From NCBI GenBank assembly GCA_963832685.1, contig CAWHUZ010000001.1:291051-355050 (forward strand): DNA of 64,000 nt. The letters are read 5' to 3'. Below, one piece after another: positions 5,976-44,359 of this stretch (its first letter is position 1; each line of letters begins with the position of its first letter). The DNA comes from an uncultured beta proteobacterium. Its GTDB lineage: Bacteria; Pseudomonadota; Gammaproteobacteria; Burkholderiales; SG8-39. Made by a program: the position numbers and the translations under genes. The notes below the pieces were generated by a model, which had not been told where the DNA came from, ran no database searches, and saw nothing but the letters and a program-made list of their open reading frames with translations.

Positions 5976-6069
5976 TTGTTGCTCCTGATCACGGGCCCCT
6001 GCGTGCCATACGAGGCGTTGGCGCCGAGTACCACTGATGAGCACTATCCGCTTTCGTTGCCGGGAGGTC

Positions 6070-6085
6070 AGTTCGTTTGCGTACA
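6070..6085. promoter_or_regulatory. Island palindromic box AGTTCG-TTTG-CGTACA
   Basis: Matches TGTRCG-N4-CGYACA; GATAGT hexamer (minus, 6048-6043) towards DUF3494 gene. Confidence 0.65.
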
Positions 6086-6092
6086 TAACCCG

Positions 6093-6125
6093 AAAAGAAG
6101 AAGGCCGTCTCGCGACGGCCTTCTT
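6093..6125 (-). terminator. Intrinsic terminator
   Basis: Perfect 12-bp stem AAGAAGGCCGTC/GACGGCCTTCTT with TCGC loop, then CTTTT on minus strand. Confidence 0.75.
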
Positions 6126-6231
6126 GTCCTGCTCTTGCGCCGAAGGAATCTTTGCCTACGGCGCGGGCACTGCAATGGTGGAATCGATCTCTACCGTTTC
6201 CCTCGCAGTACCGGATCTCTCGTTAGCAGGC

Positions 6232-7161
6232 CTACTTGTAGCCGCCCTTGCGGCCAGGATCGCCAGGCTTGCCGCCGTGCTCATCGTTCGACCAGAACGG
6301 ATAGCGACCATGGTCCGACTTGCCCGGATCGCAGTCCTCGCGGCCGTTGCCGACGCCCTGGTTGCATTTCTTGTGGTATTTCTTGTGGTGTTTGTCGTAC
6401 CCATGGTCCTTCTCGGGCTTGCAGTCCGGGGAGCCCCCGATCGCCGGCAGCGCGCCGCAACCAATGGCGCTGGGGCCAGTCAGCGATACGGCGATCTTCG
6501 CCAAGGCTCGACCGATCAGGCTGCCACCGGTCGTGGTAATGGAGCCGTCCGTGGGGTTACCCGCGAGAATGGTTCCTTTGAACACCGAGGTCGTCATGGT
6601 CACGGCGTGGATCGGTGCCCAGAACACATTGCACGGCTGCCCGCCGCCGGTCATCACCACCGAGAAGTTGGTGCCTGTGAGGGCGCCGTCCGCCGTCCCG
6701 ACAGTCTTGAAAATCCAGATCCCGGTCGAGGGCCCTGCGAGCGTCAGCGTGCCGGTCTTGGCTACGTCGTCGATACAGTAGGTGCCGGGCGCGAGCGTGA
6801 CGCCGGAGAGGGTGCTGAGGTCTTTCCCCGAGGTGGTCCCGGTGTTGGCGTCGGTGAGGGGGGTGCAGTCCCCATTCCGAATGTTGTTGTAGGCCGTCGT
6901 TAAGGCAGCCTGCGCCAGAACAGCGGCGCTGTCGGTCGCCGGGGGCACTGCGCCCTCAAACGTGCAGGCGCCAGGTGTGAAGGTGGTGGCACCCACGTCT
7001 CCGATGACCGAGCCGGGGCCGACACAGGTCACGGTGGTACCCAGGAGCGTGAAACCCGATGCCGCGCCCAGCGTCACCTGGGCCGATGCCGGGACGGCGG
7101 CGACGAGCAGCGCGGCCGTCGCAAACAGACCGGTATAAAGGTGCTTCCGAAGGTCATTCAT
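6232..7161 (-). CDS. Secreted DUF3494 ice-binding-like protein with charged C-terminal tail
   Basis: Signal peptide (ASA-Q), TLAPGTYC, IWIFK, CNVFW, FKGTILA, GRALA; tail CNQGVGNGREDCDPGKS. Confidence 0.82.
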   Translation of the reverse strand: MNDLRKHLYTGLFATAALLVAAVPASAQVTLGAASGFTLLGTTVTCVGPGSVIGDVGATTFTPGACTFEGAVPPATDSAAVLAQAALTTAYNNIRNGDCTPLTDANTGTTSGKDLSTLSGVTLAPGTYCIDDVAKTGTLTLAGPSTGIWIFKTVGTADGALTGTNFSVVMTGGGQPCNVFWAPIHAVTMTTSVFKGTILAGNPTDGSITTTGGSLIGRALAKIAVSLTGPSAIGCGALPAIGGSPDCKPEKDHGYDKHHKKYHKKCNQGVGNGREDCDPGKSDHGRYPFWSNDEHGGKPGDPGRKGGYK

Positions 7162-41686: not shown

Positions 41687-41709
41687 GGCGAGCGGTCGAA
41701 TTCCCGGGG

Positions 41710-42531
41710 CTAACTACTTGCCGAGAGCTCTACGCCGATGCCGCGGTATCCGATGAAGCGGCTGGAGCGGTTGAACATCGGCTCCCCGCTGACCTGGAAC
41801 CTCTGCTCGGAGCCGTCCGCGTTGACGCGGCTGAAGACGAAGTCCAGGAACGGCTGCCGCGCCGCGATTCGCTTCTGCAGGTCCTCCCGCTGGGCCGCGT
41901 TCCAGCCCGTCACCTGAGCACCGCCCGCGTCGCCCGCCAGAGTGTCGACCTGGACGCCGAGCATCTCCAGCACGGGACCGGATACCTTGGTGAAATTGCC
42001 GTTCTCGTCCTGTTCCCAGTACCAGTCGGCAGCCAGCTCGGTCAGGCTGCGGTAGCGCGCTTCGCTGGCGCGCAGCTCGGCGGTGCGTTCGGCGACCGCT
42101 TGTTCCAGCACCGCGTTGACATTTTCCAGCGCCTTGTACAGCAGGCGCACTTCCACCAAGTTGCGTACCCGCGCCTTCACTTCTACCAGATCGAACGGCT
42201 TGCTGATGAAATCCCGTGCGCCGGCCTGCAAGGCGCGCAGCTTGTGGCCGGGTTGGGCGGTAATCACGAGCACCGGAAGGTAGGCGTCCGCATCGTTCGT
42301 CTTGAGGATCTCGATCACCTGGAATCCGTCCATGCCGGGCATCTGCAGGTCGAGCAGGATCAGGTCGTAGCGGTTCTTGCGATGCAGGGCCCAGACCTCC
42401 TGCGGGTTCATGGTCGAGTCGACATGGGTGAAGCCGGCCTCGTGCAGCAGGCGTTCCAGCAGGCTGACGTTGGCCTCCTGGTCGTCCACGATCAGCAGGC
42501 CGGCGTCGAGGATATCGCGCTCGCCGATCAT
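41710..42531 (-). CDS. Response regulator with C-terminal PAS domain (no DNA-binding output)
   Basis: LIVDD, DLILLDLQMPGMDG, ITA, FISKPFD; SEARYRSLTELAADWYWEQD...GYRGIG. Confidence 0.87.
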   Translation of the reverse strand: MIGERDILDAGLLIVDDQEANVSLLERLLHEAGFTHVDSTMNPQEVWALHRKNRYDLILLDLQMPGMDGFQVIEILKTNDADAYLPVLVITAQPGHKLRALQAGARDFISKPFDLVEVKARVRNLVEVRLLYKALENVNAVLEQAVAERTAELRASEARYRSLTELAADWYWEQDENGNFTKVSGPVLEMLGVQVDTLAGDAGGAQVTGWNAAQREDLQKRIAARQPFLDFVFSRVNADGSEQRFQVSGEPMFNRSSRFIGYRGIGVELSASS

Positions 42532-44195
42532 GCGGCCACTGCCTTGGCGGCGCTGCGCTCGGATGCCGCTTGCGCGGACCGCAGCGCGACGTTCAGCGCG
42601 TCCATGAACCGGTCCACCTTGATGGGTTTGGTGAGATAGCTGAAGAAGCCGGCTTCGAGGCCCTTCTCGATGTCGCGCGGCACCGCATTGGCGCTGAGCG
42701 CGATGATGGGGATATGCGCCGTGGCCGGGTCGGCGCGCAGGATCTGCATCGCTTCGATCCCGCTCAGGCCGGGCAGGTTGATATCCATCAGGATCACTTC
42801 GGGCAGGAAGTGGCGCGCGATGTCTATGCCCTGCTGGCCGTCCGTGGCGCTTAGCATGCGCAGGTCGGCACGGCGCGCGACGAGTTGCTCGACCAGCTCC
42901 AGGTTGGCCGGATTGTCTTCGACGTAGAGCAGGGTGCGTGGCGGCGCGCCCTCCTGCGCCTGCGGCAGCCTCTGCGCCGCACGCGCGGCTTCCTGTGCCG
43001 CGAGCTCCGGCGCGCTCGTCAGGCTCAATTCGATCCAGAACACGCTCCCCACCCCGACCGTGCTTTCCACGCCGATGGCGCCCCCCATCAACCCGACCAG
43101 CCGCTTGGTCACGACCAGGCCGATGCCGGTGCCTTCCTCCACGCCGTTTTCCCTTCCGAGGCGGTTGAACGGCTGGAACAGCTGCGCCAGCTGCGCCGGC
43201 GCCAATCCCGGACCGGTGTCCCGCACGCCGATGCGAATCGAAGCCGCAGCGCAAGGGGTGCACTCCACGGCAACCGTGCCGCCCGGCGTGTTGTACTTGA
43301 TCGCGTTGAACAGAAGGTTGATCAGGACCTGCTTGACCCGCGTGCGGTCGGCTTTGACGAAGCAGGGGATCTCGAAAGTCGGAAACGTCATGCTGAGGCC
43401 GCGCCTTTGCGCCTGCGGCTCGATCATCGCCCGGCACTCGAGCATGACCTCGGCCAGCGATACGGGCTCGCGCGACAGCGTCACTTTGCCCGACTCGATC
43501 AGCGCCAGATCGAGGACCTCGTTGATCAGCTCGAGAAGGTACCAGCCCGCCTTGAGGATCTGGTCGAGGTCCCGCTGCTGGGCGGGCGTCGGCGGCGGAG
43601 AGCCGGATGCCATGAGCTGCGCGAAACCGAGGATCGCATTGAGCGGCGTGCGCAATTCATGGCTCATGCCGGACAGAAAATCCGACTTCGCGCGGTTGGC
43701 ATTCTCCGCCGCGGCCATGGCCTCGTTGCGCTCCGCTTCGACCTGCGTGCGCACGGAATTGTCGGTGCCGATCAGCAGAAAGCCGATGATGCCGCCGCCC
43801 ACGTCGCGCAGCGCGGTGACCGAAACCAGGGCGGGAAAGCGGCTGCCGTCCTTGCGGATATAGGTCAAGGCATAGCTGTCCTCGATCCCGTGCGATGCCT
43901 TGTACGCAAGCGCCTCGAAGCCCGGCGCAATCGGGACCCCCAGCTCGAGGCTCAATTCCCGCGCGCGCGCCGCCACTTCCTGCGGATCGTGAATGTCGCT
44001 CGGGCTGATTCTGTTCACGACTTCGTCGGCGGTGTAACCCAGCATGCGCTCGGCGCCGAGATTGAACAGCTGGATGATCCCTTTCTCGTCGGTGGCGATG
44101 ATCGAGAAAGTGGCGCTGGTGAGGATCGCGTTCCGCAAGGCGCTTGCCTTGCGGCCGTCTTCCGCAAGGGCATTCGCGTCTGCTTTCATGGCCAT
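42528..44195 (-). CDS. Cytoplasmic PAS-domain hybrid histidine kinase
   Basis: PAS FNLGAERMLGY..RKDGSRFP; H-box MSHELRTPLN; NAIKYN, DTGPG, GTGIGL; REC LYVEDN, MDINLP, KP. Confidence 0.93.
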   Translation of the reverse strand: MAMKADANALAEDGRKASALRNAILTSATFSIIATDEKGIIQLFNLGAERMLGYTADEVVNRISPSDIHDPQEVAARARELSLELGVPIAPGFEALAYKASHGIEDSYALTYIRKDGSRFPALVSVTALRDVGGGIIGFLLIGTDNSVRTQVEAERNEAMAAAENANRAKSDFLSGMSHELRTPLNAILGFAQLMASGSPPPTPAQQRDLDQILKAGWYLLELINEVLDLALIESGKVTLSREPVSLAEVMLECRAMIEPQAQRRGLSMTFPTFEIPCFVKADRTRVKQVLINLLFNAIKYNTPGGTVAVECTPCAAASIRIGVRDTGPGLAPAQLAQLFQPFNRLGRENGVEEGTGIGLVVTKRLVGLMGGAIGVESTVGVGSVFWIELSLTSAPELAAQEAARAAQRLPQAQEGAPPRTLLYVEDNPANLELVEQLVARRADLRMLSATDGQQGIDIARHFLPEVILMDINLPGLSGIEAMQILRADPATAHIPIIALSANAVPRDIEKGLEAGFFSYLTKPIKVDRFMDALNVALRSAQAASERSAAKAVAA

Positions 44196-44343
44196 GGCCG
44201 ATTTCCGCAATAACCCAATACAATCAGGCGGGGAACCCGCGCTTGCCGGGTCGGCAACGGAAGACTCGACTGAAAGCAGCCGGAAATCAGCCGCACCCCT
44301 TCCGAGGCGGCTACGCATAGTCGCCTGGGCATCGACGGCCGTC

Positions 44344-44359
44344 CGTACGCCAGCGCACA
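44344..44359. promoter_or_regulatory. Box CGTACG-CCAG-CGCACA upstream of HK-RR-crp operon
   Basis: GACTAT (minus 44322-44317); rightmost box seen. Confidence 0.75.

Follow-up and report, generated by a model that had tools for sequence, protein, structure and literature searches.

A 16-base palindrome, TGTRCG-N4-CGYACA, repeats across a 38-kb cluster of stress, envelope and secretion genes in the window, that is, the whole stretch of 64,000 nucleotides from an uncultured beta proteobacterium that was analysed. These boxes are probably the dimer sites of a subfamily of CRP/FNR-family regulators that would act by class II activation. The palindrome was derived from four predicted transcription starts named in an earlier note on this DNA, which had proposed that the boxes lie at class II spacing from -10-like hexamers. 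This spacing is confirmed here, and more strongly than the note had claimed. The window contains 25 box matches with at most two mismatches, compared to 13.4 expected. The 13 boxes with at most one mismatch were all located inside 7231-44359. Genome-wide, 39 such boxes were found, 13 of them in the window cluster and 10 in a second cluster on another contig (C3). The boxes of the window are listed below with their -10-like hexamers, predicted starts and adjacent genes (offset, nucleotides between box and hexamer).

6070..6085 (-), box with 2 mismatches; GATAGT 6048-6043, offset 21; predicted start ~6036; upstream of ice-binding-like/Big_5 gene, ORF 4704-6086.
7231..7246 (-), box; TAGAAG 7209-7204, A-11 kept, T-7 lost; predicted start ~7197; upstream of ice-binding-like gene 6232-7161.
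12637..12652, exact box between divergent type II secretion operons; + side, TAGGAT 12674-12679, offset 21, predicted start ~12686, gspD side; - side, GATAAT 12616-12611, offset 20, predicted start ~12604, gspG side.
17933..17948, box with 2 mismatches, preceding CRP paralogue 18009-18767(+); offsets 20-22 lack a -10-like hexamer.
21027..21072 (-), boxes 21027 and 21057, 30 bp apart; for box 21027, AACACT 21005-21000, predicted start ~20993, ice-binding-like gene 20003-20995; the centre of the second box (21057) would fall near -71.5 relative to this start.
22271..22286, exact box between divergent genes; + side, TATTGT 22308-22313, predicted start ~22320, DUF3096 gene, ATG 22357; - side, GATAAT 22250-22245, offset 20, predicted start ~22238, MlaC-like gene 21109-22215.
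23126..23193, boxes 23126 and 23178, 52 bp apart, between gene 22521-23135(-) and M48 peptidase gene 23320-24078(+); no NANNNT at offsets 20-22.
25634..25649 (-), degenerate box with 4 mismatches; TAACTT 25612-25607; predicted start ~25600; upstream of collagen-repeat/OmpA gene 24569-25552.
26329..26370, two boxes; box 26329, - side, GATCAT 26307-26302, predicted start ~26295, gene 25920-26270 followed by CsbD-like gene; degenerate box 26355, + side, TATGGT 26392-26397, predicted start ~26404, RcnB-domain gene 26425-26940.
35381..35396, exact box; - side, CAGGAT 35359-35354, predicted start ~35347, CsbD-BON-BON-DUF883 operon 35311-33901; + side, TAGCCT 35417-35422, offset 20, predicted start ~35429-35430, coinciding with the ATG of CRP paralogue 35430-36290.
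37712..37727 (-), degenerate box with 3 mismatches; AAACCT 37689-37684, offset 22; upstream of the fifth CRP paralogue 36895-37608(-); TATACT is also present, at offset 27.
38702..38717 (-), box; CATAAT 38679-38674, offset 22; predicted start ~38667; upstream of glycine-zipper gene ending at 38139.
38721..38848, element with box 38833 (-); CAAGAT 38811-38806; predicted start ~38799; candidate small RNA of ~80 nt with CUCCUCCUCCCC loop and terminator hairpin.
40620..40685, back-to-back boxes 40620 and 40670, 50 bp apart; box 40620, - side, GATGCT 40598-40593, predicted start ~40586, OmpA-family/glycine-zipper operon; box 40670, + side, GATGAT 40707-40712, predicted start ~40719, DUF5670 gene 40755-40904.
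44344..44359 (-), box; GACTAT 44322-44317, predicted start ~44310; operon of hybrid histidine kinase 42528-44210, REC-PAS protein 41710-42531 and CRP paralogue 40943-41686.

All 18 hexamers of the earlier note were found at the positions given there and belong, as it stated, to 15 boxes. A at position 2 and T at position 6 occur together in 17 of these hexamers, with TAGAAG as the exception, and every hexamer points at a gene or the small RNA (GC3-based gene calls with Pfam support). Fifteen hexamers lie 20-22 nt from boxes with at most two mismatches, while TAACTT (25612-), TATGGT (26392+) and AAACCT (37689-) adjoin the degenerate boxes with 3-4 mismatches. Three of the four named starts (12686, 22320 and 38799) derive from strong boxes; start 26404 can be derived as well, but from a box with three mismatches. 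The earlier note took the spacing as support for the regulon that does not depend on motif similarity; this is only partly true, because the hexamers may have guided the choice of the three degenerate boxes. When a model was trained on other species alone, it recovered these three boxes with scores of 17.3-21.4, compared to shuffle maxima of 5.5-17.0.

The positional enrichment of NANNNT, proposed in the earlier note as a check, was determined for the 13 boxes with at most one mismatch, i.e., 26 directional flanks with a background of 0.032 per offset. The motif peaked at offset 21, where it was present in 8 of the 26 flanks (~0.8 expected, P = 1e-6), with three flanks at offset 20 and two at offset 22. 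Pooled over offsets 20-22, 13/26 flanks carried it, whereas the mean over 69 other three-offset windows was 2.3 (maximum 6). Four of the 19 window boxes (17933, 21057, 23126 and 23178) have no NANNNT at 20-22 in either direction. Several genes contain frame breaks in this assembly, which makes spacing in the window less than fully dependable at the single-base level.

The same arrangement was found in 80 loci (1.24 Mb) of other Beta- and Gammaproteobacteria, which were fetched with the neighbouring CRP-family gene product P0004 as query. These loci contain 168 boxes with at most one mismatch, compared to 7-12 in five block shuffles, and 65 of the 80 loci have at least one. At offset 21, NANNNT is present in 131 of 336 flanks (background ~17, P = 2e-79), and at offset 22 in 41; offset 20, used by three window promoters, is at background level in the other species (20/336). 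In at least one direction, 120 of the 168 boxes have the hexamer at offset 21, and 48 have none at this offset. The first ORFs downstream of the oriented foreign sites include 92/130 with a Pfam family: 17 CRP-family regulators, 12 PAS hybrid kinases, 9 BON, 6 ice-binding-like, 4 DUF883, 3 CsbD and 3 OmpA proteins, and further targets such as entericidin, Ku, ferritin-like protein, CFA synthase and GH94 glucan synthase.

Of 301 genomes sampled from the class, 19 contain a strict pattern of box, GA, spacing and ANNNT (35 matches by count), whereas the control pattern read backwards gave two matches. A regulator orthologue (E <= 1e-80) was present in 25 of 300 sampled genomes. Across the 300 genomes, both occurred in 14, the pattern only in 5, the regulator only in 11 and neither in 270, which corresponds to an odds ratio of 69 among genomes that are partly related and hence not independent. 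In at least 10 genomes, one contig carries both the strict pattern and the regulator gene, at most 10 kb apart, and one collection scan yielded at least 619 confirmed relatives. Box sequences were also present at loose ends of metatranscriptome contigs, which means that some boxes lie inside transcripts or that the libraries contained DNA.

Class II activation by CRP and FNR uses a site centred near -41.5. The promoter anatomy was examined in the 131 oriented foreign sites, with A-11 and T-7 defining the alignment. Setting the hexamer at -12 to -7 places the box at -49 to -34 and its centre at -41.5. The oriented consensus is T-a-TGTRCG-N4-CGYACA-G-A-c, with a symmetric outer T...A; the sole clear asymmetry is the G directly after the box on the promoter side, present in 103/131 sites, which predicts the hexamer-bearing side (odds ratio 8.1, P = 9e-18). 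The G, A and C that follow the box occupy -33 to -31 and align with the GAC of a -35 hexamer at a 17-bp spacer. The -35 region reads C-A-G-A-c-n, with A-32 in 122 sites, and the TT of the -35 hexamer is absent; G-A-C appears to be the remnant of this hexamer. T-12 is present in 63/131 sites, and the hexamer positions besides A-11 and T-7 are near random, which suggests weak, activator-dependent promoters. The sites therefore have a -10 element that can be recognized and a -35 hexamer that is poor or missing. The class II reading was supported by every sequence-level test run, and the anatomy points to activation rather than repression.

CRP/FNR-family proteins can also repress, and the boxes could be operators of such a repressor covering the -35 region, with the spacing fixed only because part of the box doubles as a -35 element. 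We consider this unlikely. The box at -49 to -34 does abut G-33, A-32 and C-31, so that a bound protein would occupy the -35 region and, judged from the sequence, could equally well block RNA polymerase, and the four window boxes without a correctly spaced -10 element would fit an operator. However, promoters that lack the -35 TT and have a near-random -10 should be weak unaided, and spacing kept to 1 bp in 131 sites of many genera is what class II contact requires, whereas an operator needs only overlap. The regulator genes, which carry sites themselves, also fit positive feedback.

TGT-N10-ACA, which the box fits, is the consensus of NifA upstream activator sequences. Among the papers listed for this string, the majority deal with NifA or nif regulation, judging from titles and abstract openings. 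It is nevertheless very improbable that the boxes serve a NifA-type enhancer-binding protein on sigma-54 promoters: the conserved partner at the fixed 21 nt is A-N3-T and not GG-N10-GC, and no sigma-54 activator domain scored above the Pfam cut-off in the cluster. Sigma-54-like -24/-12 elements within 250 nt downstream were not enriched over random places, either in the window (5/26 compared to 5/26) or in the other species (18/322 compared to 26/322).

The hexamer peak could also be a by-product of duplicated-promoter ancestry or of box choice, under no functional constraint. The stretch at 61-81 kb of contig C3 is paralogous to window 25.9-44.2 kb in inverted orientation (80-97% amino-acid identity), so the seven promoters there do not count as independent of those in the window, and three of the 18 hexamers adjoin degenerate boxes; this explanation was tested and is not supported, and its chance of being right is slight, since the 80 loci from other genera show a stronger peak, which there precedes genes of many unrelated families, and the box is kept while the spacer diverges between paralogous promoters (differences at 1/84 specified box positions, 12 per box, and at 27/126 spacer positions in the seven pairs).

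Candidates for the class II activator are five CRP/FNR-family paralogues encoded in the cluster:

18009..18767 (+), CRP/FNR paralogue P0001, recognition helix RREGVTE.
35430-36290 and 36271 to ~36900 (+), two tandem CRP/FNR paralogues, recognition helix RRVGV(T/S).
36895..37608 (-), fifth CRP/FNR paralogue P0005, recognition helix RRVGVT.
40943..41686 (-), CRP/FNR paralogue P0004, recognition helix RREGITE.

HTH_Crp_2 scored above the Pfam cut-off in all five. For cNMP_binding (cut-off 27.5 bits), two paralogues scored above (33.1 and 28.6 bits) and two just under it (26.8 and 26.6 bits), and the domain was not detected by Pfam in the paralogue at 35430. Among solved structures (PDB, E = 4e-4) and in NCBIfam, the window regulators match NtcA best, but weakly. 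The paralogues are not NtcA orthologues, as their NCBIfam scores of 15.8-31.7 bits are far below the cut-off of 244.95 for the equivalog TIGR03697. Aligned with the base-contacting residues R186, V187, T190 and R191 of NtcA, the recognition helices have R, E or V, T, and E or K; the V187 position is Val in three of the five paralogues and Glu, as in CRP, in two. A simple rule assigning half-site types to helix types across the paralogues failed when tested.

In the mechanism that we propose, dimers of a regulator of this subfamily would bind the boxes. The box centre would lie ~41.5 bp upstream of the start, over the place of the -35 hexamer, and would thus overlap the -35 place of a weak promoter of the housekeeping sigma factor, whose remaining elements would be only G-33, A-32 and C-31 and, at -10, (t)A-N3-T. 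Direct contact with the bound regulator would most likely bring in RNA polymerase, the mode known from FNR sites and NtcA promoters. The predicted regulon has an envelope and stress part (CsbD, BON, DUF883, glycine-zipper and OmpA-family proteins), ice-binding-like exoproteins, type II secretion genes and a small RNA. It would also include the regulators themselves and the adjacent hybrid kinase and REC-PAS pair, giving positive feedback.

If this holds, genes usually credited to sigma-factor stress responses (CsbD, BON/OsmY-like, DUF883/ElaB-like, entericidin, Dps-like and CFA synthase) would be wired here to an activator. Most of these genomes still have RpoS. An unannotated repeat becomes a promoter map with 18 predicted starts in the window, and the rule of box, 21 nt and A-N3-T finds like promoters in many Beta- and Gammaproteobacteria from soil and fresh water. 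A CRP/FNR subfamily without a name in annotation models (best NCBIfam score 31.7 bits) also gains a motif and a candidate regulon; in the literature, we did not find this subfamily described with this gene set. A tentative and rather doubtful extension is that these parts form one undescribed regulon, widespread in Beta- and Gammaproteobacteria, with NtcA-like CRP paralogues fed by the adjacent PAS hybrid kinases, a cascade of helix types and invariant class II promoters. In such a cascade, Arg-Glu (CRP) and Arg-Val (NtcA) helices would read TGTG and TGTA half-sites. On this view the paralogues would switch on a general stress, envelope and exoprotein programme, which here would also drive type II secretion with ice-binding-like cargo and an anti-Shine-Dalgarno small RNA.

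As at E. coli class II CRP/FNR promoters, whose site lies near -41.5, the predicted centre here is at -41.5; 6 bp separate the pentamer cores, as in the TGTGN8CACA register of CRP, and the regulators have the CRP fold families HTH_Crp_2 and cNMP_binding. The consensus TGTRCG-N4-CGYACA differs from both TGTGA-N6-TCACA of CRP and TTGAT-N4-ATCAA of FNR, and unlike FNR, the paralogue translations have no N-terminal cysteine cluster by eye. BON-type proteins are encoded at the low-oxygen-activated (lxa) locus of Burkholderia cenocepacia J2315. According to the excerpted text of PMC3721108, many CRP/FNR-family sites dot this one chromosomal locus, as in the cluster here, and lxa encodes CRP-family regulators, two-component systems, ABC and outer-membrane transport proteins and a crystallin-related protein, gene classes that the two share. 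The lxa motif is Anr/Fnr-like with a shared TGA-N6-TCA (PMC3721108, same excerpt), in contrast to the motif here, and the cluster has neither the universal stress proteins nor the ribonucleotide reductase that are typical of lxa. The geometry of the boxes is the same as that of cyanobacterial class II NtcA promoters, for which an excerpt of PMC3898017 gives GTA-N8-TAC centred at ~-41.5, a TAN3T -10 box and 22 nt between the two: here a 14-bp core GT-N10-AC lies 22 nt from a -10 element (T)A-N3-T, with no full -35 hexamer. The half-site TGTRCG, longer than the GTA of NtcA, is rich in G and C, the hosts here belong to the Beta- and Gammaproteobacteria, two paralogues have Glu as in CRP, and the targets are stress, envelope and secretion genes instead of nitrogen assimilation. 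The layout would be that of a textbook CRP/FNR-type activator, and the regulator subfamily and its gene set would be the new part.

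All 18 -10-like hexamers that the earlier note had placed at class II CRP spacing from 15 boxes were found in position, and 17 of them fit NANNNT, with A as second and T as sixth base. Each hexamer faces the adjacent gene, as had been claimed, or in one case a candidate small RNA. The box is a 16-bp palindrome, TGTRCG-N4-CGYACA, and is present upstream of all four start sites that the note had named. Fifteen hexamers adjoin boxes with ≤2 mismatches, and three adjoin degenerate boxes (25634, 26355, and 37712). At ≤2 mismatches, the window contains 25 matches to the box compared to 13.4 expected from shuffles; at ≤1 mismatch there are 13, all within 7231–44359. 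In the 26 directional flanks of these 13 boxes, NANNNT occurred at offsets of 20, 21, and 22 nt from the box edge in 3, 8, and 2 flanks, respectively. The positional test proposed in the note thus gave an enrichment above chance at offset 21 (8/26 flanks, P = 1e-6 against a background of 0.032 per offset). Counting any hit at 20–22, 13 of 26 flanks have a hexamer, whereas 69 other three-offset windows gave 2.3 on average and at most 6. The boxes at 17933, 21057, 23126, and 23178 have no NANNNT at offsets 20–22, and no preferred distance between neighbouring boxes was found. At the sequence level, the class II reading is supported, with the boxes as putative activator sites for promoters that we infer to be sigma70-type. 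Transcription starts are predicted 33–36 nt beyond the box edge, among them 12686+, 22320+, 35347-, 38799-, 40586-, 40719+, and 44310-.

Because the G+C content of the window is 64–74%, genes were called by third-position G+C and checked with Pfam. The box-bearing region encodes:

type II secretion genes, in two divergent operons
three ice-binding-like proteins
OmpA-family, MlaC-like, CsbD, BON, and DUF883 proteins
glycine-zipper, RcnB-domain, and beta/gamma-crystallin proteins
an AI-2E transporter and a MacB/HlyD/OEP exporter
a hybrid PAS histidine kinase and a REC-PAS protein

Several genes are split across reading frames (12718–18141, 8521–10426, and 28163–29449). The GspD N-domains and the Secretin domain (14660–15232) are in different frames, and a 1314-codon open frame runs on into GspE. 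Splitting also affects GspF, GspL, and the outer-membrane protein OEP. RNA contigs of close relatives differ from the window by indels of 1–2 bases at several places. Either indel errors of the assembly or pseudogenes account for these splits, and spacings in the window call for caution at the single-base level.

The whole assembly of the source genome (3.36 Mb) contains 39 boxes at ≤1 mismatch, of which this cluster accounts for 13 and a second one, on contig C3 (61–81 kb), for 10. The C3 cluster is an inverted paralogue of window 25.9–44.2 kb with 80%–97% amino-acid identity, for which reason its promoters do not count as independent evidence. This copy (61300–81300), in which the boxes are retained, stems either from a true segmental duplication or from another strain that was binned with the 86.6%-complete genome. 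Across seven paralogous promoter pairs, differences affect 1/84 of the specified box positions (12 per box) and 27/126 of the spacer positions.

The spacing was replicated in other Beta- and Gammaproteobacteria. With an alignment of the regulators from the window as query, a search that covered each species by a single genome gave at least 619 confirmed relatives; boxes were counted in the best 80 loci (1.24 Mb). Their hosts include Rhodocyclaceae, Thiobacillus, Sulfuriferula, Oxalobacteraceae, Nitrosospira, Gallionella, Methylotenera, Methylobacillus, Dyella, Rhodanobacter, Methylovulum, and Crenothrix. These loci contain 168 boxes at ≤1 mismatch, spread over 65 of the 80, compared to 7–12 in five block shuffles. 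NANNNT was found at offset 21 in 131 of 336 directional flanks (P = 2e-79 against a background of ~17), at offset 22 in 41, and at offset 20 in 20; 120 of the 168 boxes have a hexamer in at least one direction. NANNNT also rises slightly at offset 28 (37 flanks), but half of this is shared with sites that have the hexamer at offset 21. A weight matrix trained on foreign sites alone recovered 19 boxes in the window, all from 6070 to 44344, among them the three degenerate boxes (scores of 17.3–21.4 compared to shuffle maxima of 5.5–17.0).

The consensus of the 131 oriented foreign sites is T-a-TGTRCG-N4-CGYACA-G-A-c, where the symmetric outer T and A extend the palindrome to 20 bp. The single clear asymmetry is the promoter-side G immediately 3′ of the box (103/131), which predicts the hexamer-bearing side with an odds ratio of 8.1. 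With the hexamer set at -12 to -7, the box centre falls at -41.5 and G-A-C at -33 to -31, where it coincides with the GAC in TTGACA, given a spacer of 17 bp. Besides the set-defining A-11 and T-7, T-12 is weakly kept (63/131). Judged from this consensus, these would be weak promoters of the activator-requiring kind, without the TT of the -35 element.

A CRP/FNR-family repressor that blocks these promoters by occlusion is improbable, as it fits poorly with weak promoters and with a spacing precise to 1 bp. TGT-N10-ACA is the upstream activator consensus of NifA, and most of the listed papers that use this string deal with NifA or nif regulation. It is nevertheless highly implausible that the boxes are NifA-type sites for sigma-54 promoters, because sigma-54 elements are not enriched downstream of them (5/26 versus 5/26 in the window, 18/322 versus 26/322 in the foreign loci). 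That the hexamer peak reflects shared ancestry or the selection of boxes in the earlier note deserves hardly any credence, since the foreign loci rule it out. The motif of the lxa locus was also rejected as the same motif; it is Fnr-like and differs from the box.

For class II activation, the putative regulators are five CRP/FNR-family paralogues in the window:

18009–18767, + strand, CRP/FNR-family paralogue
35430–36290, + strand, CRP/FNR-family paralogue
36271 to about 36900, + strand, CRP/FNR-family paralogue
36895–37608, - strand, CRP/FNR-family paralogue (fifth)
40943–41686, - strand, CRP/FNR-family paralogue

The third lies in a 624-codon open frame (36271–38145, +) that is CRP-family over its first ~210 codons alone; the remainder, antisense to the fifth paralogue, is probably non-coding. 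Within 35417–35432, the -10-like TAGCCT ends 7 nt before the ATG of the paralogue at 35430–36290, which may therefore be translated from a leaderless mRNA. The arrangement on C3 is the same, with the box one base further off. A run of ~11 G (17985–17999) between box 17933 and the start of the paralogue at 18009 could be prone to slippage or mark a weak point of the assembly.

Among ~300 genomes sampled over the class, a strict composite pattern of box, GA, spacing, and ANNNT was found in 19 (35 places among the matches listed), and its reversed control matched twice. A regulator orthologue (E ≤ 1e-80) was present in 25 of the same genomes. Both occurred in 14 genomes, the pattern alone in 5, and the regulator alone in 11 (odds ratio 69), although related genomes do not count as independent, and for three of the five with the pattern alone, a regulator-positive genome is known from the same genus. 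The unpublished genomes G039 and G296 are part of these tallies; minus these and the source genome, they are 13/4/10/270 (both/pattern/regulator/neither). A kinase-REC-regulator operon was rejected as a general rule, as a REC gene is directly upstream of the regulator in just 20 of 80 loci, 13 of which also have the kinase. No RpoS scored above the cut-off in the 86.6%-complete source genome. RpoS-like matches (E ≤ 1e-100) occur in 19/25 regulator-positive genomes versus 224/300 overall, so there is no anticorrelation, and the regulon as a general RpoS replacement was rejected.

The first ORFs downstream of oriented foreign sites belong to a Pfam family in 92 of 130 cases. These include 17 CRP-family regulators, 12 PAS hybrid kinases, 9 BON, 6 ice-binding-like, and 4 DUF883 proteins, three each of CsbD, OmpA-family, glycine-zipper, DUF4398, GH94 glucan synthase, and GGDEF/EAL proteins, 2 entericidins, and single cases such as Ku, a ferritin-like protein, CFA synthase, and fumarase C. 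The predicted targets thus make up a stress and envelope regulon that would feed back positively onto its own regulators. In three loci (L062, L065, and L066), the gene immediately downstream of an oriented box encodes a giant GH94 protein (2500–3000 codons) that resembles cyclic beta-1,2-glucan synthase, which ties the regulon to periplasmic glucan synthesis in those genomes. No description of the box motif or regulon, and nothing relevant on a CRP-type stress regulon, was found in the literature searchable outside subscription journals and preprint supplements.

Metatranscriptome contigs from one soil study (runs X1, X3, X5, and X7) cover several box-driven operons. Among the 30 of 112 pieces listed, one corresponds to 33946–35333 and takes in the entire CsbD-BON-BON-DUF883 operon, stopping 14 nt short of the predicted start (35347); others over the OmpA-family gene end at 40498–40557 (predicted start 40586). 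Contigs cannot show starts, and this agreement is no more than compatible with the predictions. Several stretches, including the small RNA, lack contig cover and are uninformative. This candidate small RNA of ~80 nt (38721–38829, -), between box 38833 and the next box, has a hairpin with an anti-Shine-Dalgarno-like CUCCUCCUCCCC loop, after which come a terminator hairpin rich in G+C and a run of U; its folding z-score is -4.9. It weakly matches the alphaproteobacterial ar14 family of Rfam (32.6 bits, under the gathering score of 58.8). The paralogous cluster on C3 has a copy of it, and a similar copy lies near position 7747 of contig C10. None of the 131 oriented foreign sites was found to be followed by its motif.

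The nearest solved relative of the CRP-fold regulators is NtcA, a distant one (E = 4e-4). The NCBIfam NtcA model gave only 15.8–31.7 bits against a cut-off of 245, and the regulators are therefore not NtcA. According to PMC11850224, R186, V187, T190, and R191 of NtcA contact bases. By alignment to these, two paralogues have R, E, T, and E (Glu-type, CRP-like), and by alignment and translation, the other three have R, V, T or S, and K/E/A (Val-type, NtcA-like). A simple autoregulatory rule from helix type to half-site type was unsupported by the 15 foreign regulator genes that have an oriented box upstream: TGTG...TACA boxes precede 5/8 Glu-type genes, and Val-type genes have TGTG...C(C/G)CA or TGTG...T(A/C)CA boxes, with the distal-half G in 7/7. 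Cross-regulation may occur. The core GT-N10-AC of the box lies 22 nt from the hexamer. NtcA promoters, as described in PMC3898017, have a site centred at about -41.5, a -10 box TAN3T, and 22 nt between the two, which is the same layout as that of the box promoters.
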